Of a DNA stretch of 64,000 bases, positions 4,622-43,202 are shown one piece after another. The notes beneath the pieces were generated by a model. The model saw only the letters and a list, made by a program, of their open reading frames with translations, ran no database searches and was not told where the DNA came from. Source of the stretch: Eledone cirrhosa. Its lineage: Eukaryota. Every line of letters starts with the position of its first letter. The first letter of the stretch is position 1. A program made the position numbers and the translations under genes. Location: positions 29,202,001 to 29,266,000 of the forward strand of contig OZ024753.1 in assembly GCA_964016885.1 (NCBI GenBank), in the 5' to 3' direction.

Positions 4622-4765
4622 TCATATTTATATATATACTCTTCTCACTCACACACAAGAAAAACAAGAAAAACAAAAAAACAAAACAAAAAACAAAAAT
4701 AAATTTAAAAAAAATATATATATATATTGAAATACTTAACTAAAACACAAACACTCAAAACTAGA

Positions 4766-5291
4766 ATGGCTAACCAGCAAAAATCCAAACAGAACTGGTC
4801 TGATAATGAAATCGACATTCTAATAAACACATGGTATTGCCTTACCCAAACAGAAGACATAGATGCTTCATGTCTGAACGACATTGCTAAACGTACAGTT
4901 CAACTTTTGAAAACCCGATCTGAACAACAGATTCAAAATAAATTAAAGCAAATCGAAATTGCTTTTAAATTAATCAATAAACATTTGGATAAACTACGGT
5001 GTGTTTTTTCTTCGGATGCTGTCCAGCAGCAGCAACAACAACAACAGCAGCTCCAACGGCAACAACAACAACAGCTACAACAACAACAGCAACAACAACA
5101 TCAACAACAGCAACAACAACAACGACAACAACAACAACAGTGTGAACCACTCCTTGATTCATCAACAATGGCCGATCTACTAAATGAAACTATTGACCTC
5201 CCAGTAGCCTCTGTTTCACAGCAGGAAACGCCACATCCTTTCTCTGGCCCAGCAGTCCAATCATCACCACTCCCAACATCTTCTTCTCTGC

Positions 5292-5359
<68 letters not shown>

Positions 5360-6001
5360 GCTACTACTACTACTACAACATCTTTGGCTACTGCTATCTC
5401 AAGGAATTTACCTTCTAATACGAGTACAAGAACTCTCCCTCCCACAGTCCACAAAGGTCGTCAAATCCTACTCAAACCATCATCTACACCTCTCACAACA
5501 CACACACCCACATACCCACCCACTCGAAACCCCATCGTTTGCCGCTACTCTCTACGCTATAGAATATGTACGGATAGTGGCTGCAAATTCACCCATTTAC
5601 CTAGGACAAAACGGTCTATCCCCACAAACAGCCACCACCATAATACATACTCTAATTTAACACCAACACAACCACCAATAACTCAAACAAGGAATCCACA
5701 AATCTGCCGCTTTTCCCTGCGAGACAGATTGTGTTTAGACCGGGATTGTCCCTTTACCCATCTCCCGGGGACCCGTCGGACAAATGAAAATAAAATTAAA
5801 AATAAAAGCAAAAACAAAAACCATAACCTACATAAAAATAACCACTACCACAGTCACCAACAGTCTTCTAAACAGGAAACTTCTTCCTCTTTTTTAGCCA
5901 TAATGAATCTGGCAAAAGAACTGGAAAAAAACATTCGAGCTATCACCCAGCACCACCCTCCACTATCACCCCACTGCACAAACTCCCATTGCTGCCATTA
6001 A
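4766..6001 (+). CDS. LINE ORF1: Myb/SANT-like N-terminus, polyQ and polyT tracts, two CCCH zinc fingers
   Basis: Open from ATG 4766. Contains NWSDNEIDILINTW, (CAA/CAG)n and (ACT)n tracts, and the fingers CRYSLRYRICTDSGCKFTH and CRFSLRDRLCLDRDCPFTH. Confidence 0.7.
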
Positions 6002-8866
6002 CAAACAAACAAATTAACCACATCCCTTTCTTCGTCCTCACTGAAACCCATCTCAGTAACCTTCACTTAGAAGCCGAGGTGAAAGTGAAAAATTTCAAAG
6101 CCATCCGTGCTGATCGCGCTGGCAGAAGAAAGGGCGGGACTGCCATTTATGTCCATAATTCTTTCTCAACAGAGGCTATGAACATATTCACTAATGGATA
6201 CTGCGAAGCAGTCACTGTATTCAGTCAAACCAACAACCTAATAGTAGTTGGGCTCTATAGGCCACCCCAAACGCCTGTACCATGCTTCAAGGAATGCCTC
6301 AACAGCATAAAGTGTTTCATCCAAGAGTGTCACACTGACGACATCTTAATGATGGGGGACTTCAACCTCCCCGGAGTTGACTGGTCCACAAACAGCCTGC
6401 CACCAGGTTCTTCTGCCTCAACCTCTGACAGGGAAGCAGTGGAATCGCTTCTTGACTTCATGGATGATTTCTTCCTATCCCAACTGGTGCTCGAACCAAC
6501 GAGGTGCCACAAAAACGTCCTAGACTTAATTTTCAGCAATCACACTGACAATATCCACAATATTGCAGTGGAGAAAACTCTACTCTCTGATCATGACATG
6601 GTTCTCTGTGATCTGAGATTCCACCGTCCAATATACAAACCCAATGTCATCTCTCCTGTCCATCCGTTTGACGCTATGGATTTCCACAATGCAAACTGGG
6701 AAGCGATCAGTCATGATCTTGCACATGTCGACTGGTCCTTCACGCACACTCATACACCCACTAACATCAAAAAGTCCTGGCAGACATTTGTGGACACTGT
6801 TACAAACATATGTGCAAAACACACCCCATTAAGAACTATAAACAAATCTAAGAGCAGAATCCCTAGAAATAGAAAAATGCTCATCAGAAAAATTAAGAGA
6901 ACGAACAAAAAAATCAACAAGCTGAAATACTGTCAGCAGCAACACATCAACTTGACTGCCATTTCATCACTAGAGATTAAAAAAGATAACCTCCAAAACA
7001 ACATAATGTCTCTCATCAACAATCAGAGAAGAGCTGAAGAGGCCTGGGCCATTAAGAAGATCAAACTCAATCCCAAAGTGTTCTTTTCATTTGCAAAAAA
7101 ACACAAAATCACTGGCTGGCCCTCTAATTGATGAAAATGGCACTCTTCAAGACAATGCTAAAACCATGGGTGAGATACTGCAGAAACAATACTGCTCTGT
7201 TTTCAGCAATCCTGATATGGCCGATCTGGGCTGTATCGGCGATATTACTCCCCATTACACCTTACCGGACATAACGTTTGGCGCCCCTGATGTCTTAGCG
7301 GCAATAAAGGAAATCAAGCATAATTCAGCAGTAGGTCCCGATAGGTTCCCTGCTTGTGTCTTGAAGGCGTGTCAACACCAACTTGCATCTCCTCTTGCCA
7401 ATCTGTGGCGGAACTCACTGGATGCTGGATATGTGCCAGAAAACCTTCTATCCCAGTCTGTTGTCCCAGTTTTCAAAAAAGGAAACAAATCCCTTGCCGT
7501 GAATTACCGTCCAATCTCACTCACCTCTCATATCATTAAGGTATTTGAGAGAGTGGTGAGATCGCGAATGACCCACTTCCTTGAGAGTAACAATATGCTG
7601 AACTCCAACCAGCATGGATTCCGTAATGGAAGGGATTGCCTGACGCAGCTACTGCATCACTTTGATGACATTTTGAGAGCCTTGGGAGAGGGTTCCAACA
7701 CTGATGTTATCTACCTTGATTTCAGCAAGGCCTTTGACAAGGTTGATCATAACATTCTACTGAGAAAGCTGTCCAATATTGGTGTCACTGGAAAGCTGCT
7801 GCAGTGGATCAAGAGCTTCCTGTCAAACAGAACCCAACATGTTGTAGTTGAAGGAGTCAAATCCAGCCCAGCCAAAGTCAGTAGTGGGGTCCCACAAGGC
7901 ACTGTGTTGGGCCCACTTCTCTTCATCATCTATATTAATGACATCACTGACATCATCAAACACAGCAACATTAAAATTTTCGCTGATGATTCCAAGCTCC
8001 AAAAAGTCATCAATGGCGTGGATGACCGGATAAGCCTTCAGTCAGACCTACTGGCTGTTACCCAATGGGCGGAAAAGAACAACATGTTACTGAACGAAGA
8101 CAAATTCGAACTGATCCACTTTGGAAAAGAGGATGCTCTGAAACTCCCGTACTCCCTTCCCTCCGGGGAAACTCTCGTGGCATCTAACAACATCAGAGAC
8201 TTGGGAGTAACCGTGGACAGCAACATAAGCTGGGCCACGCATATAAGCAGCAAAGTTGACATGGCCCGCAGAATGTGTTCCTGGATCCTCAGAACCTTCT
8301 AGTCGAAAGATTCCCACACCATTATCCTTCTCTTCTCTACTTTTGCCCGACCACACCTTGAATACTGTTGTCCACTGTGGTCTCCCCACACGAAACAAAG
8401 TATCATGAAACTTGAAGCTCCTCAAAGGGCAATCACGAAAAAGATAGATGGCATGTCAGACCTTGACTACTGGGGTCGACTAGAAAAGCTGAAACTTTAC
8501 TCACTCCAACGTCGCCGTGAGCGTTATATTATCTGCATGATGTGGAAAATGTTCCATCATCACTGCCCAAATGATGTTGGCATCGCCTTCAAGATACACC
8601 CAAGGCTTGGGCCCTGTGCTATCCGTCCCATACAAAAATCTAAATCGCAACTCATAACAACAATACGGCACAATTATTTCACCTCAATTGGCCCTGCTCT
8701 CTTCAACATCACACCAGGACACGTCAAAACAGAAACTGACCACACAAAATTTAAGAAGTCTTTGGACAAATTCCTCCAAGTAATCCCGGACAAACCACCC
8801 ACACCCGGATATGTCTCCGCAAACAGTAATTCTCTTCTCGAATGGGCCATGGTGCCCAAATCCTGA
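5989..8866 (+). pseudogene. LINE ORF2 (AP endonuclease + reverse transcriptase), disrupted
   Basis: APE motifs LTETHL, YRPP, GDFNLP, LDL and SDH. RT motifs YRPISLTS, DFSKAFDKV, GVPQGTVLGP and FADD. Frameshift near 7105 and an in-frame TAG at 8300-8302. Confidence 0.92.
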
Positions 8867-9323: not shown

Positions 9324-9432
9324 GATATATATATATACATATATATATACATATATATATACATACATATATATACATATATATATATACATACATATAT
9401 ACATACATATATATACATATATATATACATAC

Positions 9433-11813: not shown

Positions 11814-12850
11814 CTAATGGATACGATTTAAACTACCAGAACTTTTAGGTCTATAATAGAAGAAAGAATTAGAAATGGCATGGGGGTAGGAAGAAAATAT
11901 CTCAGACTTTCTATTAAGCAAAACTTCCCTAGAGAAAATTATAGAGTGGGTCTGTAGGATACAGAGATTACAGAATTTAGTGTGTGTTGATAGGTTATTA
12001 GAGCGTGCTACTATACGCCAATTAAGGCTATATGGCATGCCTGCCCCTTTAAGATCCCAGATATGGTGTGCTAAAGAAGTAGAGTTCTTAAACTTAACAT
12101 GCTTAACATTAGAGATATGAGAATTAAACCTAGTTTTAAAAGTATTTGATGTGGAGCCTATATATGTGCTATTAGAAGAATCAGTCTTAACTTCACAAGC
12201 ATAAACAATGTTCCTAGAGAGGCAGTGACCATTTAAAGGGCAGTTAATACTTACTCTACAGTTACACTTCCTGGTGCTATTTACCGGCTGAATAAGTGAT
12301 GCATCACTTCTAGGGTTATTATAAGATAAGGTGTGTTCAGGTGGTAAGGCATTAATGGATCTATCAAGACTAGTAGTACGCAACGAGGAGTAGCTGTCCC
12401 TAATTTTCTTATTGTTAGTGCTAGCTAAATGAGAACTAATATTAGGGGTGGTAGAGAATGATAGTTTAATTACATTTTTATTAAAAATACCATGGTATTT
12501 ATTAGTAGGAGGGAAATTTTTCTCTAAGATAGAAAAGAAAGACCTAGGGATGTTAGTTAATACTTCATGATCATAAGGCGGGTTAAAATAAGTATTGAGT
12601 CTCCTCCTATTTCTATCCTTACCAACTCTACCGTTATCCAGTATCCCACTAATAGGATCAGGGTTACTACGAGGACTAGTTGAAACAACATTATTAGAAG
12701 CAGCCAAAACCCTATTGAGTCTCCTTCTGTTTCCACCTTTAGTATATCTACTGTTATCTGGAATCATATCAATAGGATTAGGGTTACTACCAGGATCAGT
12801 TGAAACAACACTATTAGAATCAGTAAAAACATTACCACTGGGTGAGCGAT
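11814..12850 (-). pseudogene. PLE C-terminus: linker + GIY-YIG endonuclease
   Basis: YFNPPY...NFPPTNKYHGIFNKN...CNCRVSINCPLNGHCLSRNIVYACEV...YIGSTSNTFKTRFNSH...CNLC. Confidence 0.88.
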
Positions 12851-13220
12851 CATTGTTGGCTGATAAAGACTTTTGATGTATTGAAGGCTTCTTTGGTTTA
12901 CTTTTTATAATTCTTCGGCTCTGTTTAATTACATTGAGCTATATCCTATACTGTCATTTCTATAATATGAAGAGGGTGTTTAACTCCAACACACTCTAGT
13001 ATTTTAATTCTTATATATATATATATACATACATATATATATACACATACATATACATATATATATATATACATACATATACATATATATATACATATAC
13101 ATATATATACATACATACATTTATATATATATACATACATACATATACATATATATACATACATACATATATATATACATACATATACATATATATACAT
13201 ACATACATATACATATACAT

Positions 13221-29333: not shown

Positions 29334-30376
29334 GGGGGGGGGGGCAGTTGTCTAGTTATACTAATTACTACAGGTGGTAACGGTTTCAACGTTCAAGGCT
29401 TATACGTGAATTGGATGTTCAGTGTTAAAAAGTGTGGTTTAACACTGGCAGAGTGTTTATATAACGAAAGAGATCGAACTTCTTAAAGCTTTAGCCATGG
29501 TAAGAACACTATTTCCAAGATATTTTTATAGCTAATCACACACAACGGAAAATTTATAAATTTGTTAAATAAAATTGATTTACATAGGCTATTTAAGTAA
29601 ACATTTAGAAGTTTGCCTTAAATTAAATTTTCGTTTAACTTGTTTTAGATTTGTTTAGAGATATTTGGTAATATGTCATCGGAATATGATAAAATGTTTG
29701 AAGTGTTTGATACTTCCAGTAATAACGTTGGAAAAAATATATAAATGATGATTCAGTTAGATATGTATGCTTAGAAGTGAAATTTGGGTTTCTGAAGTGG
29801 TTTTAAGGTATTTTGAAATATTAACATGAGAAGACTCTCAAAAATATGTCAACGTGATTCCACCATAACTACGAGAGATATTTAAATGGATATAATTTAA
29901 TAAGTATCTGTTAAAGAAATATTCTACATATCAATAATACTTTACATTTGGGTATATCATATTTCTAGACTGGAAACGAAAAACAAAAGAATGCTGCCAT
30001 TGAGAGAGGGAGGAGAGGGGGGAATGAAAGAGGAAGGAAAGAGAGAGGAAAGAGAGTGGGGAAAGAGAGTGAGAGAATGAATGAGGATGACAGAAAAGAG
30101 AGAAAGAATGAGATTGAGAGAAGAGAGAGTGTGAATAAGATTGAGAGGAAAGAGGGAGAGAATGAATGAGAGTGCGAAGATAGAGAAAGAGACAGAGAGG
30201 GAGTGAAAGAGAATGAGAGAGAGGGAGTGAAAGAGAATGAGAGAGAGGGAGTGAATGAGCATGAGAAGATAGTAAAGAGAGAGAAAAGAGAGAGAGAACA
30301 ATTATATATACGTTTGTTTGAGTGTACACGTGTTCTCATTCCATTCATAATGTGTGGTAACATGACATCACACCAA

Positions 30377-31237
30377 AACCCTGTAATATTACTTTACTAA
30401 TCTACCACTGGTTATAAACCCTGTAATATTACTTTACTAATATACCACTGGTTATAAACCCTGTAATATTACTTTACTAATATACCACTGGTTATAAACC
30501 CTGTAATATTACTTTACTAATATACCACTGGTTATAAACACTAATATTACTTTACTAATATACCACTGGTTATAAACCCTGTAATATTACTTTACTAATC
30601 TACCACTGGTTATAAACATTGTAATATTACTTTACTAATATACCACTGGTTATAAACACTGTAATATTACTTTACTGATCTACCACTAGTTATAAACATT
30701 GTAATATTACTTTACTAATCTACCACTGGTTATAAACATTGTAATATTACTTTACTAATATACCACTGGTTATAAACCCTGTAATATTACTTTACTAATC
30801 TACCACTGGTTATAAACATTGTAATATTACTTTACTAATATACCACTGGTTATAAACATTGTAATATTACTTTACTAATATACCACTGGTTATAAACATT
30901 GTAATATTACTTTACTAATATACCACTGGTTATAAACATTGTAATATTACTTTACTAATATACCACTGGTTATAAACACTCTAATATTACTTTACTAATA
31001 TACCACTGGTTATAAACATTGTAATATTACTTTACTAATATACCACTGGTTATAAACACTCTAATATTACTTTACTAATATACCACTGGTTATAAACACT
31101 CTAATATTACTTTACTAATATACCACTGGTTATAAACACTGTAATATTACTTTACTAATATACCACTGGTTATAAACACTCTAATATTACTTTACTAATA
31201 TACCACTGGTTATAAACACTCTAATATTACTTTACTG
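30377..31237. repeat. 40-bp minisatellite, about 21 copies
   Basis: Unit gtaatattactttactaatataccactggttataaacatt. The 40-bp period is directly visible. Confidence 0.95.
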
Positions 31238-31575: not shown

Positions 31576-31635
<60 letters not shown>

Positions 31636-31641
<6 letters not shown>

Positions 31642-32725
31642 GGAAAAAATGAAACGAAATTTCATTTCCCACTCTTAGTACGGCTGTTACTTAAATATAA
31701 GTATGTACATGTACATACATATATGTATACAGACGTACAGTAGTATGTATATATATATATACATACATGCACACATATATATATGCACGTATGGATTCAC
31801 CGAACATTTATTATAATGCTCGGTGTGTTTGTAAAAAAACAAACATCCCGTATTAAGCCGTAGTGTCCAGCAACCATCGTTGCTCGTTTGTTCAACACTG
31901 ACAAAGGAACGCTGTACTAGTTTCAAGCTTATTAGCTATCGTCAGCAACGTATACCTTCCTGCCAGATTGTTGAACGTATATACTTACCTTATGCATATT
32001 AGCGGCTGAGTAACCCAATTTGTATATCGAGTGGGTTAATCGGCCGGGTGCACCGAAAACGATAAACGGAAAAAATGAAACAGCGTTCCTTTGTCAGTGT
32101 TGAACAAACGAGCAACGATGGTTACTGGACACTACGGCTTAATACGGGATGTTTGTTTTTTTACAAACACACCGAGCATTATAATAAATGTTCGGTGAAT
32201 CCATACGTGCATATATATATGTGTGCATGTATGTATATATATATATACATACAACTGTACGTCTGTATACATATATGTATGTACATGTACATACTTATAT
32301 TTAAGTAACAGTCGTACTAAGAGTGGGAAATGAAATTTCGTTTCATTTTTTCCGTTTATCGTTTTCGGTGCACCCGGCCGATTAACCCACTCGATATGCA
32401 AATTGGGCTACTCAGCCGTTAATATGCATAAGGTAAGTATATACGTTCAACAATCTGGCAGGAAGGTATACGTTGCTGACGATAGCTAATAAGCTTGAAA
32501 CTAGTACAGCGTTCCTTTGTCAGTGTTGAACAAACGAGCAACGATGGTTGCTGGACACTACGGCTTAATCCGGGATGTTTGTTTTTTTACAAACACACTG
32601 AGCATTATAATAAATGTTCGATGAATCTATACGTGCATATATATATATGTGTGCATGTATGTATATATATATACATACTACTGTACGTCTGTATACATAT
32701 ATGTATGTACATGTACATACTTATA
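31636..32725. mobile_element. Retrozyme-like HHR repeat, subfamily E1: one inverted permuted monomer plus about 1.5 direct monomers (426-nt unit)
   Basis: HHR acgttg CTGACGA tagct-aata-agctt GAAA ctag TA cagcgt at 32470-32512 (+) and about 31909-31951 (-). Confidence 0.85.
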
Positions 32726-32740
32726 TATATATATATATAT

Positions 32741-32796
<56 letters not shown>

Positions 32797-34686
32797 ATAC
32801 ATATGCATATTTATATATATATATACATGTGTGTGTGTGTGTGTTTCTGTGTGTATGCGTGTGTGGGTGTGTTCTATTGAATTTGTTTGTTTCTTTCTGT
32901 ATGTGTGTGTATGTAGGTGTGTACGTGTTTAAAAGGTTTGCTTCGTACTCTTGAGGTCGTTTACACTTCCTAGCAACTAAGGTAAATTTGTTTTACCATA
33001 GCCTCCGGTGTGGTAATATGGGGTAGACAGAAGCAGTATGGAAAACCAACTATACCAGTAATTCACCATGGCCCCTTGTCAAATGAGATACAATTGAAAT
33101 TATCCTAAATTTTGGAGACCAACACCAAGTAGCAGCCACGTCAGTAAGTGAAAAACATATACTTAACCCGTCATTAAACGTGAAAAACACTTTACTGTTT
33201 TTGTTTTAAAATATTTCATATAAAAGCATATTTTTCATATTTGAAACAACTATTTCATTGTCTTATTCATCATTTTAGTTGTTGTTGTTGTTGTCGTTGC
33301 TGTTAATGTCGTTGTAATTCGAACTGTTTTCACAATTAAGTTAAAATGTGTGCGCATTATAGAGAGGGAGAGAGAGAGAGAGAGGGGAGAGAGAGAGAGA
33401 GAGAGAGTGCGCGTGCGAGTGTGTGTGTCGAGTGCGCGTGCGAGTGTGTGTGTCGAGTGCGTGTGCGTGTGCGTGTGTTTGTGCGTGTGCGAATGTGTGT
33501 GTGTAATTAACAAAAAATTCCAGAAATAACTCGAGTCACATTTAATAGGTTGAATGCCAACAAAAATGCAAAGAAGAAAACACATAGTAAATGAAATAGC
33601 CTATTAGGGATAGTATCTGTTAGGGTGGCTTATTTTCATTGTTTTCTGCTATTACTCATTAATCAACTATATTTACTAATTATAATATAATTTACATCAG
33701 GCGGAGTAACAATTTCCAAACGACTTCAAGATTTTACGATTGTGTGTATGTGAAATACTGCTGCCGCTCGTGCAAGGAGTTGATATATTGATGAAATATT
33801 TTCACGATATAACAGAATTAAAGCAAGGCGGTGTAATAGGAAAAATAGCCTCCATCTGTTTGGTTGAGCTAATGTAATTTGGTGTGCAATGTTATTAGAT
33901 AAATTTAAGATATTTTTCGTAACATAATTTGAAATATATCCCCGAGCTACAACTGGTAGAATCAGTAAACTGATCTACAAAGAATTGATGTTTCTTACCC
34001 CGCCATGCTCCTTGTTGCTTTGAATTCCATGGCAAAAATATATGTATTCAAAACCTTAAGGAACTGCACAAGAATAAAATAAATATTTGTACTGTTAAGT
34101 TCCTGTACTGAATACAATCGTGCTCACAAAAATATGTTCCTATCCAAGACTAGCGTAATATGCAGGAGAAAGATTTTTATCTCATTTACTTATCTCAGAC
34201 TTGCCAACCTCTAAAAAGCCAAACGGGGAGTACCATGAAAAAAGGGGCCCCCAAAACTGGTAGAAATGAAGCAAAATGGGAAGATATAATGAAAATCATA
34301 CCCATTTTCACAAGGGAAGACACCACTCACACACCCCAAAGTCTCTCTCTCAAATCTCCCCGTCGGACGAAGAGAGTTTAGAGGTCTGTTATCTTTATGG
34401 AAGCTGGAAACATTTACTAGTATCAGCCTAGCAGATGCACGAGCATGAATGTATATCAGAGTTGCCCCCTTTGTGTAGGCAAAGTAGGAAGTGTTTATTT
34501 GGAATAAAATAATAAATATATATAATTAAACATAAAAAACTATTTCTTTACAATTTTTAATAAAAATGCTAATAAATATATGAAATTTAATGTAAAATAA
34601 AATGGTCAAATTTGATGTTAACCTATGGTGGTAGATTGGCCGAATATACAGATCTATCTATCTACACACACACACACATATATATA

Positions 34687-34796
<110 letters not shown>

Positions 34797-35798
34797 TAAT
34801 TTATTAAAATAACAGATTAAAGTTTAAGCAAAGAATCGCTGCTTTCACCCTTAACGGGATCTTCTGAAACTAACAAAGTCAATCTGTAAACGCAGAACTG
34901 GATATTTCAAAAAACGTTGCAACCGGAGGAAGACAGGAAGACGATACTTTGGTTCGTGGTAACGTTCGCTGGCAAAGAACGGGAAAAAACGAATAATACG
35001 TCATTAATAGGAGCGGTGAAAAACAATTACGCGCAAAGACAAATCCACGTTTATGGTATAAAAGAGGTCGTAGACTAATGTTCTCTTAGGTGGTGCATAG
35101 AGACGTTCTCTGGCAATGAACGAAAAAACGAAGATAATAAGTCATATGTGGAGCGTGGAGAACAATAGCACGCAAAGACAAAACCACGTAAATGGTATAG
35201 CAGAAATCGTAGACTAAAATTCTAACTAGGAGACCAAATGAATCTCCGCTACAGAGTTAAGAACAAAGTAAATAAATACAATACAGAAGTAATAGGAACA
35301 AATAAATACATACACGCAAACAGATACGTACATACACAAGCATACGCAAAACCTTACCATGGGTATACAAAACCACGCACATATAAATATGTGTGTGTGT
35401 GTATGTTTGTGTACAAATAAATAAATAATTATATAAACGTATATAAGTAAATAAATACGTATATAACAAGCGCATACGCATACCTACATATAAATACACG
35501 AATGTAGGAGACGTAAGTCAACTAAAACAAGAAGTACACATATACACACACCCACCATACGTACGAACCTGCACACTCACGCGGACGCAAAACTCCCGTA
35601 TACACATAGCCAAACCCTAAATACCAGAATATGTAAAAATTATACGCTATAACAGTCAAATATACGTACGAGAAGGTATACATACCTTCACAAAACATAC
35701 GGGTAATATATACTTACCTATGCAAATAAGTAAAGGAATAAACAAAACATATACTTAGCTCCCACATCAAAACGTAGAATATCCACGTATAGATCGTG

Positions 35799-37918
35799 CT
35801 ATCCGTTAAGGTATAACGTGGGGCTGTAATACAGGAAAGTTTTGTGCAATTTATGTTTACAAGCCGAAATTGCCTCAGATTTTTTGTTTAAGATGTGGTC
35901 TGTAGCGTAGAGTATTTCCAGGGCCTCAGCGGCGCAGAGGTCACATGGTCTTTTATTTCCGTTATACGATCTAGCCCTAGCTAGGATCTCCCAGTGTAAC
36001 TTATATTGGGTGTGGTTGTCTTTTAGACTCCAGATATAAGCTGAAAGTGACGTCATATTCCTTCTTAGAGGGTAACGAAAAGAATGGGTATGCATGTAAA
36101 GACGCTGCTTGAAACTATTGGCGGTTAACCCTATGTAGGCCCTACGGGACGTGGGTGTTACAACCTTACATTTGTAGACAATGTTACTAGAGAGGCATTT
36201 CCCGGATAGGGGGCAATCAGCCCGATTCCTACAATTACAGTTAGTACTACCTACAGGGTTGCACGTGTTCCTACGGCTAGGTAGTTTAGCTAAATTTGAA
36301 GCTGTGATGTTATGTGCAAGGTTAGGAGTTGTAGAGTAAGACATTTTAATAGTATTTCTATTAAAAATTTTACTGTAGGGGGAAAATGCTTCGTAATAAG
36401 GGAAAGAAAGATCTTAGCTAATGGTGTGGCCACCTCCATATTATATGGTGGGTTAAACCAACAAATGCGACGGGATCTATTTCTTCTAGGTCTATTTTCG
36501 TACACTGTATATGCTACCTTATCGACAAATCCACTTCGAGCAAGAGCTTCATTGTAATAAGTGGAATGGTCGTTGAAAATGCGTTCGTTGGTGGAAAGAC
36601 GGGAAAGCCTCAACGAAACGTTTCTTACCAGGTTCTTGGTTATGCTGGCAGGATGGTTGGAATGCTTACTTATGTAATTAAGCGTATCATTCGGTTTTCT
36701 ATACGGGTAATACAACCCATTCAATAAATTGAGGGTAACGTCGAGGTAATTAACGACCGAGAGATTGGCCTCAACCTGTATAGAGAGGTTGAAGCCTTTA
36801 AAGAAGGCTGTGAGTTCTTTTCTGAACCTGTCGCAAGCACGAGGTCCGCACTTAGTCATGGTCAAAAGACCATCGTCACGGTACAAACCACCGCCCGCGT
36901 TGGGGAATTCGTCCTTGATAGAGAAAAGAAGGAAAAGGCCAACAAGATCAGTAACCTCCGCAGAGTCACTGGCGCCCATACTCACGTCGAATGGGGTACT
37001 ATTGGATTTTTTAATCCAAATAGAGTCGTCGAAATTAATCACCGACTTTCGGGCATTAAGGATGACATCAACTTCAAAATCCTTAACCACTGTGAGTGTT
37101 TTAGCGAAATTGATAGCTCTAAGGAGAAGTGGTAAAGTGATGGAGGAGTAGTAATTGTTGATGTCGAATTGGATAAAACGGCAATGTTCCTTGTTACATA
37201 TGCCGTTGAACCAATCAATCACCGCGAAAGAATTGTTCCACAGTGCGAGAGGGGCCAAACTTCTAATTTCAGGTATAATTCTATCAAGAATCGTTTTACT
37301 AAGTCTACCTAAATCGGACTTCGTAGGGTTAATAAGCCGAATAGAGGGGTTGTTCGGAAAATTGGATTTGTGATCCTTCAGGGTAAAGTGGGGATAGATA
37401 GGGTCCAGAGGTTCGGTCCGGTCCAGGATGTTGAGATCAGATGTGATTTTAAACCCAGCATCGTTGATTTCATTGATGACGCACCGATTAGTTTTACGGT
37501 AATCCTTAGTTACAGCATTATGTAGTAGTTGATGGTAAGTACTGCGCTCCACTTGATATAGGTTGCCAGTTTTGTCGGAATGGACGTGCACGGCGTTAGA
37601 ATCCTTAATAGAACGAATTCTATTCTTCAGGTCTTGCTGGAAGGAATTGCTCCTATTCCGAAATTTGATATTCCGAATGAGTTCCAAGACATCATTTTCG
37701 AAGGGTAGCAATGCTGGGTTCCACGGAGGGTTATTATAAGTTTTAAATCCAAATTTATCCTGTTTGTTGTCTGCTTTTCGCGGATTATAGAAATAAAAGG
37801 CACGCCAACGCAACCTTTTAATGAACGCGTCTGTTTTCTGTATTAGGAGTTTTAGGTATGTTTTCCTGCTTGGTACGGGTATGTTCTTTGTAGAAATATT
37901 CAGATGTTGTTTCTGCAT
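35799..37918 (-). pseudogene. PLE RT-GIY-YIG polyprotein with one frameshift near 36370
   Basis: STKNIP...RLRWRA...SDKTG...LKDHK...FDINNYYSSI...MGASDSAEVTDLVG...GLYRDDGL...WFNPPY, then the GIY-YIG part NIVYKCKV...YIGLTANSFKQR. Confidence 0.92.
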
Positions 37919-39787
37919 GATGAATATAAGTCAGTAGAGTGCCTTTTTGGCGTGCCTTTTATTTCGATAATCCGCGAAAAGCAGATAAGTAAGCATTCCA
38001 ACCATCCTGCCAGCATAACCAAGAACCTGGTAAGAAACGTTTCGTTGAGGCTTTCCCGTCTTTCCACCAACGAGCGCATTTTCAACGACCATTCCACTTA
38101 TTACAATGAAGCTCTTGCTCGAAGTGGATTTGTCGATAAGGTAGCATATACAGTGTACGAAAATAGACCTAGAAGAAATAGATCCCGTCGCATTTGTTGG
38201 TTTAACCCACCATATAATATGGAGGTGGCCACACCATTAGCTAAGATCTTTCTTTCCCTTATTACGAAGCATTTTCCCCCTACAGTAAAATTTTTAATAG
38301 AAATACTATTAAAATGTCTTACTCTACAACTCCTAACCTTGCACATAACATCACAGCTTCAAATTTAGCTAAACTACCTAGCCGTAGGAACACGTGCAAC
38401 CCTGTAGGTAGTACTAACTGTAATTGTAGGAATCGGGCTGATTGCCCCCTATCCGGGAAATGCCTCTCTAGTAACATTGTCTACAAATGTAAGGTTGTAA
38501 CACCCACGTCCCGTAGGGCCTACATAGGGTTAACCGCCAATAGTTTCAAGCAGCGTCTTTACATGCATACCCATTCTTTTCGTTACCCTCTAAGAAGGAA
38601 TATGACGTCACTTTCAGCTTATATCTGGAGTCTAAAAGACAACCACACCCAATATAAGTTACACTGGGAGATCCTAGCTAGGGCTAGATCGTATAACGGA
38701 AATAAAAGACCATGTGACCTCTGCGCCGCTGAGGCCCTGGAAATACTCTACGCTACAGACCACATCTTTAAAAAAAAATCTGAGGCAATTTCGGCTTGTA
38801 AACATAAATTGCACAAAACTTTCCTGTATTACAGCCCCACGTTATACCTTAACGGATAGCACGATCTATACGTGGATATTTTACGTCTTGATGTGGGAGC
38901 TAAGTATATGTTTTGTTTATTCCTTTACGTATTTGCATAGGTAAGTATATATTACCCGTATGTTTTGTGAAGGTATGTATACCTTCTCGTACGTATATTT
39001 GACTGTTATAGCGTATAATTTTTACATATTCTGGTATTTAGGGTTTGGCTATGTGTATACGGGAGTTTTGCGTCCGCGTGAGTGTGCAGGTTCGTACGTA
39101 TGGTGGGTGTGTGTATATGTGTACTTCTTGTTTTAGTTGACTTACGTCTCCGAACACTCGTGTATTTATATGTAGGTATGCGTGTGCGCTTGTTATATAC
39201 GTATTTATTTACTTATATACGTTTATATAATTATTTATTTATTTGTACACAAACATACACACACACACATATTTATATGTGCGTGGTTTTGTATACGCAT
39301 GGTAAGGTTTTGCGTATGCTTGTGTATGTACGTATCTGTTTGCGTGTATGTATTTATTTGTTCCTATTACTTCTGTATTGTATTTATTTACTTTGTTCTT
39401 AACACTGTAGCGGAGATTCATTTGGTCTCCTAGTTAGAATTTTAGTCTACGATTTCTGCTATACCATTTACGTGGTTTTGTCTTTGCGTGCTATTGTTCT
39501 CCACGCTCCACATATGACTTATTATCTTCGTTTTTTCGTTCATTGCCAGAGAACGTCTCTATGCACCACCTAAGAGAACATTAGTCTACGACCTCTTTTA
39601 TACCATAAACGTGGATTTGTCTTTGCGCGTAATTGTTTTTCACCGCTCCTATTAATGACGTATTATTCGTTTTTTCCCGTTCTTTGCCAGCGAACGTTAC
39701 CACGAACCAAAGTATCGTCTTCCTGTCTTCCTCCGGTTGCAACGTTTTTTGAAATATCCAGTTCTGCGTTTACAGATTGACTTTGTT

Positions 39788-39838
39788 AGTTTCAGAAGAT
39801 CCCGTTAAGGGTGAAAGCAGCGATTCTTTGCTTAAACT
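39788..39838 (+). ncRNA. Variant hammerhead motif (family C; CAGAAGA core, CUU site)
   Basis: agttt CAGAAGA t-ccc-gttaa-ggg-t GAAA gcag-cgattct-ttgc TT aaact. The same variant occurs near 16220, 34865 (-) and 44165. Confidence 0.6.
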
Positions 39839-40469
39839 TTAATCTGTTATTTTAATAAATATTTGCTCTACGGTTCTTATATATTTGATATATATTTTCC
39901 TTATCGAGCCCTCTTTGGATTTTAGTCTTCAATTTTATTATTATTACTATATATATATTATATATATATATATATATTATATATTTCTATGATATATATA
40001 TATATTATATATATATTATATATATATATATATTATATATTTCTATTATATATATATATATTATATATATATTATATATATATATATATTATATATATAT
40101 ATTATATATATATATTATATATATATATATATTATATATATATTATATATATAGATATATATTATATATAGATATATATATTATATATATTATATATATT
40201 ATATATATTATATATATATTATATATATATATATATTATATATAGATATATATATTATATATATATATTATATATATATATATTATATATATATATATTA
40301 TATATATATATATATTATATATATATATTATATATAGATATATATATTATATATATTATATATATTATATATATATTATATATATAGACATATATTATAT
40401 ATATATATATATATTATATATATATATATTATATATATATATATTATATATATATATATTATAATCAAT

Positions 40470-41681
40470 TCGCTGCATAGGAAAATACCCGGTGCTACCG
40501 GAGGTTTATATAGAGATGACATGCTTTTACTTATTGAAAATAATAACTCTGAACTAAATAGAAAAAGAAAACAAATTACACAATGTTTTAATTACTTTAA
40601 TCTAAAAATAGAAATTGAGAATAACCATAGAATAGTCAATTTCCTAGATGTAACATTAAATCTCAACACATGTCTTCACTATCCATTTCATAAGTTGAAT
40701 GAAAACTTAAACTATGTCAGTTTTAACTCTAACCACACCCAGATCTGTTAAAAATACTATAGTGAACTCTGTTCAAAAACGTATCTCTAGAATCTCATCT
40801 AATAAAAAGATTTTCGACGAAAAAGCCCAGTATTACAATGAAGCGTTAGCTAGAGCAGGATATAGTGATAAAATTATGTACATAGATAATAATAGACAAA
40901 CTAACCAAAATAACAACAATTTTAATTACGGCAACAATTTTAACAACTATAATAGAAAGCATTACAATAATTCCAAAAGCCAAAAAAGAAATAGAACTAG
41001 GAATATAATATGGTTTGCCCCCCCCCCTTCTCACTAAACATTAAAACCCACATCGCTAAACTATTTTTTAATGCTCTTGATAATCGCCTCCCTAGAACAC
41101 ATCGGTATCACTCAATTTTCAATAGACATACTATAAAATTAACTTACTCATCCACCAAAAATTTAGCACAAAATATTAATAGAATAAATAATAGGAATTT
41201 AAAACCTAGCCAAAATACCGATAATAGCATAAATAATATCCAAGTAAACAAATGTAACTGTAGAGATAGATCTAAATGTCCGTTAAATAACAATTGGTTA
41301 GTTAAAAATATAATATACAACTGTAATGTTAAAACGGACTTAAATTCTTTTAACTATGTTGGTTCCACCTCGACAGAATTTAAACTTCGCTATAATAACC
41401 ACAAGAATTCTTTCACAGATCCAAGCAAAAAATCTTCAACATCACTATCAGGCTTACTCTGGCAACTTAAGCATGATAACGTTGGATATTCGACGGCTTG
41501 GAATATAGTCTCAAGAGGGATTCCTTTTAATTCATCCTCTGAGACATGTGACCTCTGCGCGGAGGAGATATTCTTTATACTAAAATCTAAAAATTCCCTT
41601 AATTTACGGACAAATTTATTCAGTTGCTGCAGACATAGATTGAACTCAACGTTTAAATATAAATATAAATTTAAAATGTAG
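40470..41681 (+). pseudogene. 5'-truncated PLE RT/GIY-YIG with frameshifts (same type as 35799-37918)
   Basis: GGLYRDDML...NFLDVTLNL...IIWFAPP...CNCRDRSKCPL...NIIYNC...YVGSTSTEFKLRYNNH...CDLC. Confidence 0.88.
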
Positions 41682-42819: not shown

Positions 42820-43019
42820 TTCTCTCTCTCTCTCTCTCTATCTATCTCCCTCTGTGTTTTTTCTCTCTCTATCTATCTCTCTCTGTTTCTTTACATGAAT
42901 TTCTTCTCTCTATCTATCTCTCTATATCTATCTCTCTCTATTTAGTTGCATGCATTTCTTCTTTTTCTTCGCTTTTTCTTTCTTTCTTTTTATAACTGTC
43001 CCTAACATTTTTCACTACC

Positions 43020-43202
43020 AAATCAACTTTTTAAATGGAAGTTGAAGTTGTAAGGTATGTCAAATCTAACTTTTTATAAGACTGTTTATATTGTATTTTG
43101 TCTGAAGAAGGCATACCATATTTTTAATATGATATCCCTGAAATATATATAATGAAATAAATATGGTTTTATAAATATAGTTTCCATTTATTTAATATCG
43201 TA
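43020..43202 (+). mobile_element. Family D HHR element (short arm)
   Basis: Homologous to 21950-22132, with core CTGAAGA near 43102. Confidence 0.75.

Follow-up and report, generated by a model that had tools for sequence, protein, structure and literature searches.

Does a repeat copy that begins at the predicted cut of its own hammerhead ribozyme record the activity of that ribozyme in vivo? The question was raised by an insertion in Eledone cirrhosa, lying in a 64,000-nt stretch of DNA that we analysed as a whole and call the window (G000:C13:29202001-29266000; genome of 3.0 Gb in 1,796 contigs; positions are those of the window throughout). The initial annotation had described a plus-strand copy starting exactly at the cleavage site, next to a permuted minus-strand unit, and had proposed a self-cleaved RNA and/or a circle or multimer as the template. 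We favor another reading, to which we give a probability of roughly 0.8: a 426-nt hammerhead repeat, classed as a non-LTR retrozyme, is abundant in the genome, and the locus would be one of its ordinary two-armed copies, which a Penelope-like reverse transcriptase/endonuclease likely inserted in trans and which would start at the predicted cut by chance.

Anatomy of the locus

The window is AT-rich and contains many microsatellites. The inserted element is built from a 426-nt unit (GC 37%) that carries one type I hammerhead; the period first noticed at this locus was confirmed. Features are collected in Table 1, with unit positions (u) numbered from the first base past the predicted cut, that is, u1 at window 32081. 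At their 3' ends, both arms enter (AT)n. A target duplication of >4 bp, when present, is a criterion of non-LTR retrozymes; both ends of the locus lie inside (AT)n, where a duplication is unreadable. The unit showed no coding capacity: neither a reverse transcriptase (RT) nor a GIY-YIG open reading frame (ORF) was found, the only open frames of at least 120 aa touching the locus being two that are driven by microsatellites. The element can therefore only be non-autonomous. A 40-bp minisatellite (window 30376-31236, 21.6 copies, 95% matches) lies 400 nt to the left of the insertion.

Table 1. Features of the two-armed insertion (window positions)
Feature	Position	Strand	Remark
(AT)n target tract, left	31576..31635	.	
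446-nt minus arm, from u260 to u279 of the following unit, with S2 (fixed site) as its 3' end	31636..32081	-	6 differences vs plus unit
56-nt "tail", S1 (about u223) to S2 (u279), with predicted hairpin	31636..31691	-	terminal only on the minus arm here
Minus-arm type I hammerhead	31909..31951	-	predicted cut after 31915, read through
2-nt microhomology at the head-to-head arm joint	32080..32081	.	covers the position where the plus arm is predicted to be cut
650-nt plus arm, u426/1/2, one whole unit, on to about u223, with S1 (fixed site) as its 3' end	32080..32729	+	last few bases blend into the AT tract
Internal S2 copy (u279)	32359..32359	+	contigs from public runs exit there into (AT)n; loose ends: X1 56, X4 4, X6 2
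Plus-arm type I hammerhead: stem I 6 bp, stem II 3-4 bp, stem III 2 bp with palindromic loop	32470..32512	+	predicted cut after 32506, read through
(AT)n target tract, right	32730..32825	.	

Because the arms have two bases in common at the joint, the start of the plus arm can be read as u426, u1 or u2. The arm does start at the cut, as had been claimed, but the word "exactly" could not be retained. As for the minus arm, described as a permuted unit with the same sequence at both ends, about 20 nt are indeed repeated there, because the arm exceeds the unit by 20 nt, and this holds for any arm longer than 426 nt. Its bounds are those of Table 1, and its length is not an enriched one (see below).

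The hammerhead ribozyme

In the predicted fold of the hammerhead, stem I has 6 bp, stem II is short, and stem III has 2 bp and a palindromic loop, an architecture known for metazoan hammerheads that may act as dimers (PMC4209133). It gave no Rfam match at the gathering score. The core was intact in 198 of 261 copies, and among the same 261 copies the stem I pair 393-3 was found as UG (176), GU (40) and AU (26). This compensatory change suggests that the ribozyme is under selection. What is selected would probably be the making of monomers or circles, as we infer from the account of such elements in PMC7229834; the junction at the locus does not show it. A comparison of conservation between core and flanks was set aside, as the copies bearing junctions bias its result.

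5' ends are not enriched at the predicted cut

The intact junction of this subfamily was read straight through at 9,380 places in the genome (exact matches). A cut-site pattern requiring mismatches upstream of the cut matched 56 places genome-wide, and a control pattern of the same design, located 11 nt upstream, matched 67. True 5' ends were found at 36 of the 51 places checked for the cut-site pattern (out of 56; a few of the 36 duplicate one junction) and at 21 of the 30 checked for the control (out of 67). Once corrected for the pass rate of each pattern, genome-wide 5' ends amounted to 73.5 at the cut versus 70.6 at the control site. Moreover, the A that precedes the cut was present at 28 of the 36 cut-site 5' ends, which argues against a cleaved template, since a cleaved RNA would not template that A.

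The local profile gave the same picture. A pattern accepting any 5' end from u386 to u13, a 54-nt span, produced 1,916 matches. We examined 93 of the first 100 matches in the list. A script called 15 of them internal deletions or duplications (a few calls being imperfect, none of them at the cut); without these, 78 were kept. Two of these 78 ends fell at u426 or u1, against 2.9 expected, and none at u1 alone; four fell within u426-u2, against 4.3 expected, with a 95% upper bound of 2.2-fold. Hence, an arm start at the predicted cut is no commoner genome-wide than a start at neighbouring positions. Since two independent genome-wide tests lacked enrichment at the cut, the locus provides no evidence of cleavage in vivo. 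Enrichment of 5' ends at the cleavage nucleotide was the test that had been set beforehand for the proposal that the junction records a self-cleaved template and in vivo ribozyme activity, and by that test the proposal is not supported.

The minus arm has an ordinary length

A possibility was that synthesis stops after one round on a circle, yielding arms just over 426 nt. The pattern for 5' ends at u245-u335 gave 2,462 matches. Many belonged to a subfamily carrying a short deletion; this subfamily was excluded by eye when 40 places were picked and added to 30 loci. The resulting profile was flat, with bins of 7, 9, 5, 5, 8, 7, 7 and 8 (56 ends from 71 matches). Among the first-round arms ending at u279, 7 of 16 were 427-456 nt long, against 5.9 expected (p=0.61). 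The one-round stop was rejected on these grounds, and, arm lengths being distributed flatly, nothing sets the 446-nt minus arm apart.

Most arms end at two fixed sites, nearly always one of each per pair

The 3' ends behaved differently from the flat 5' ends. Among 342 complete arms, 122 ended at u217-227 (S1), 147 at u274-280 (S2) and 73 elsewhere. S1 and S2, which lie 56 nt apart, accounted for 269 ends, 211 of them directly followed by TA repeats. Two hairpins are predicted here, a small one whose loop contains S1 and a longer one with S2 right behind it. Contigs from public runs also leave the unit at S2 into (AT)n, with the counts given in Table 1 (X6 being from another study). The sampled loci had been picked by 5' patterns, independently of their 3' ends, and came mostly from contig C1.

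Adjacent arms were oriented head to head in 105 of 119 cases, and in most of these the arms overlapped, or were separated, by a few bases. Both ends were at a fixed site in 68 of 123 pairs, the other 55 having at least one end elsewhere. Few of these 68 pairs used one site twice: 65 combined one S1 with one S2 end (p about 2e-16), as did 55 of 57 at stricter identity, and the studied locus is such a pair. Paired arms were concordant at 359 of 393 polymorphic sites, versus 55.5% between insertions, and their lengths were uncorrelated (rho 0.07). Only 30 of the 65 S1+S2 pairs had the S1 arm nested in the S2 arm, and the locus was not among them: its S1 arm has 650 nt and its S2 arm 446 nt. Arm starts were at most 20 nt apart in 16 of 97 pairs.

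A second, short hammerhead family showed a tail on exactly one arm in all 12 distinct pairs (counted by eye among 30 loci, 11 of them single-armed). Its copies in the window (21688-22125, 43014-43199, 54998-55366 and 60581-60841) have short head-to-head arms with a tail of ~90 nt on one of them, and are very young, several being 100% identical genome-wide. A second subfamily of the retrozyme itself, about 77% alike and with a longer unit, lies at window 55411-56205 and 61350-62856. It comprises an S1+S2 insertion with head-to-head arms, which occupies the AT tract behind the second hammerhead family, and a 3.3-copy array.

The one-sided tail is already known qualitatively for Penelope-like elements. 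The count of paired starts and its presence in a retrozyme were not encountered in the literature searched, which consisted of openly available main texts, and no paper there stated a paired-start rule.

A proposed mechanism with two internal starts on one RNA

From these genomic end-products, on which every step is based, we infer that the two target ends are primed as a pair, each at its own internal start, on a single RNA. A Penelope-like enzyme would cut both strands of a (TA)n tract; one target end would prime cDNA at the internal start S2 and the other at S1, on the same RNA; each cDNA would halt at a random point; and the two cDNA ends would be joined via a few shared bases, then filled in. 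This scheme is in line with how an anole Penelope element behaves in vitro (PMC11167929) and with the genomic account in PMC8557442. The template RNA would be a circle or an uncut multimer: the arms read across unit junctions, so that the template must span them. Read-through of unit junctions was part of the initial annotation and is supported by multi-unit copies. Retro-mobilisation, also proposed there, is supported by the copies themselves, which number in the thousands, lie dispersed, are truncated at the 5' end, often comprise several units and have fixed 3' ends in (TA)n.

As to circle versus linear multimer, variant sharing in 17 insertions gave a divergence of 3.3% in phase, 3.9% out of phase and 3.5% within arms (Wilcoxon p=0.58), and variant triples split 88:137 (p=0.077). 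Rare alleles were fixed in all copies in 8 cases, singleton in 462 and partial in 107.

LINE-1 twin priming produces a head-to-head inversion in which both target ends prime and the joint bears microhomology; its first primer sits on the poly(A) tail and its second at a random internal site. The retrozyme, by contrast, has two fixed internal starts separated by 56 nt, and its two arms have overlapping sequences.

A broader proposal, which could as well prove wrong as right, is that Penelope-type integration is an obligately asymmetric double priming, in which one enzyme complex would hold both cut ends of the AT tract and start two cDNAs on the same RNA, one at either of two fixed internal sites; animal retrozymes would carry their own pair of sites to hijack it. 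The short arms of retrozymes make such a one-per-start rule countable, in 65/68 pairs here and 12/12 in the second family. Several observations count against our favored reading of the locus. Each of the two starts matches (TA)n over a few bases, unlike the non-homologous starts described for the anole enzyme in vitro (PMC11167929); 73 of the 342 arms end outside S1 and S2; and the 56-nt tail is longer than the 30-40 nt described.

Other readings of the two-armed structure

It is very unlikely, in our judgement, that the plus arm was copied up to the end of a self-cleaved RNA, with the junction recording ribozyme activity in vivo. In favor of this reading, no more than one base separates the arm start from the predicted cut. 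The conserved fold of the hammerhead, with its compensatory change in stem I, makes it probable that cleavage has a role at some stage of the life cycle, and an excess of up to about 2-fold would be compatible with the local profile. Against this stand a 5'-end rate equal to that of the control site, a local count no higher than expected, the upstream A retained at most cut-site ends, and the many junctions read through. As a family-wide 5'-end signal, the self-cleaved template is refuted. Still harder to credit is that the head-to-head arms stem from misassembly, from a fold-back read or from two separate insertions that recombined later: inverted repeats in AT tracts are difficult to assemble, but the arms differ at 6 of 446 positions and at both end points, and neither artefact nor random recombination yields the shared orientation and the S1+S2 pairing counted above.

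We also doubt, less strongly, that the one-tail pattern arises at the DNA level with the same enzyme, by single priming followed by template switching and endonuclease resolution, which would give the second arm and the tail, as proposed in PMC8557442. Such a route explains a tail at exactly one end and the variants common to both arms, and some pairs do start close together. Yet a simple fold-back expects the S1 arm to lie always inside the S2 arm, and was rejected because this was the case in less than half of the pairs and not at the locus; in vitro, moreover, two RT starts delimit the tail (PMC11167929). Forms of this route that are more complex than a simple fold-back keep some probability; priming at two internal starts remains our preferred reading.

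Penelope-type copies in the window and the search for a partner

No autonomous element sharing the unit sequence was found among the Penelope-type elements of the window or among 30 loci of one genome-wide family, and recurrent 5' flanks among 195 solo-arm flanks revealed no longer element. A Penelope-type GIY-YIG fragment lies head to head with a retrozyme arm and is present twice, in inverted orientation (L180:717-2200 and L179:1000-1735). It was rejected as the partner, having a different hammerhead and no common sequence with the unit; the joint is possibly a chimeric insertion of two RNAs, or nesting.

The two ORF-bearing Penelope-type insertions of the window share the one-tail anatomy; their tails measure about 87 and 52 nt. 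The one at 34801-39945 lies between AT tracts and has head-to-head arms 99.4% alike over 1,874 bp, with the 87-nt tail on the right arm only and, near the 3' end, a hammerhead-like motif with one core base altered; its ORF (36290-37930) gave no Pfam match. The other, at 45682-49453, has inverted ends, hammerheads at 45891 (-) and 49296 (+), and its tail on the left arm only; its ORF (47085-48953) gave weak RT and GIY-YIG Pfam matches, under the curated cut-offs. Further Penelope-type fragments lie at 11814-12938, 41001-41681 and 51014-52198, and LINE-type ORFs with an RT domain at 4709-8866 and 25362-27494 (Pfam RVT_1, E 5e-32 and 2e-26).

Discussion

The element resembles the metazoan non-LTR retrozymes of PMC7229834 in its non-coding tandem unit within 150-450 bp, low GC (<50%), one type I hammerhead per unit, and thousands of dispersed copies. 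Penelope-like elements were proposed there as the partner that mobilises such retrozymes (Cervera and de la Pena 2020). Head-to-head arms, paired fixed 3' ends and a tail, as seen here in genomic copies, are features that we did not meet in that account.

These features match what is described for Penelope-like insertions (Craig et al. 2021, PMC8557442; Frangieh et al. 2024, PMC11167929), namely 5'-truncated partial tandems, an inverted, 5'-truncated copy at the 5' end, a tail at one end and a bias for (TA)n targets. For an anole Penelope element in vitro, PMC11167929 describes cutting and extension of both strands, with two internal RT starts bounding the tail. That element was predicted to act as a dimer, its hammerhead mutants had no effect on insertion, and no RNA ends were seen at the cut. 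The likeness extends to the two internal starts and to insertion independent of hammerhead cleavage. The retrozyme differs in lacking RT and GIY-YIG ORFs and in its longer tail. Its near-strict use of one start of each kind also differs from the Penelope papers as far as their main texts go, where the tail is "often only at one end" and the anole enzyme used both starts on either strand, with no strand difference.

The same class of partner is concluded in a preprint that treats retrozymes as non-autonomous Penelope derivatives (bioRxiv 10.64898/2026.07.22.740005). Its case rests on co-occurrence and pLTR phylogeny, and its main text contains neither "tail" nor "insertion site"; ours rests on insertion anatomy, and no sequence-related pLTR was found.

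The element is a new family of metazoan non-LTR retrozyme with Penelope-type insertion anatomy. That the proof of cleavage failed agrees with the in vitro finding that Penelope insertion does not need hammerhead cleavage (PMC11167929). What remains is a mechanistic fingerprint linking an animal retrozyme to Penelope-like enzymes, a link argued so far, in the papers considered, from co-occurrence and phylogeny. The rule of one arm per start site is sharp and testable, and it bears on the origin of the inverted ends and the one-sided tail of Penelope elements.
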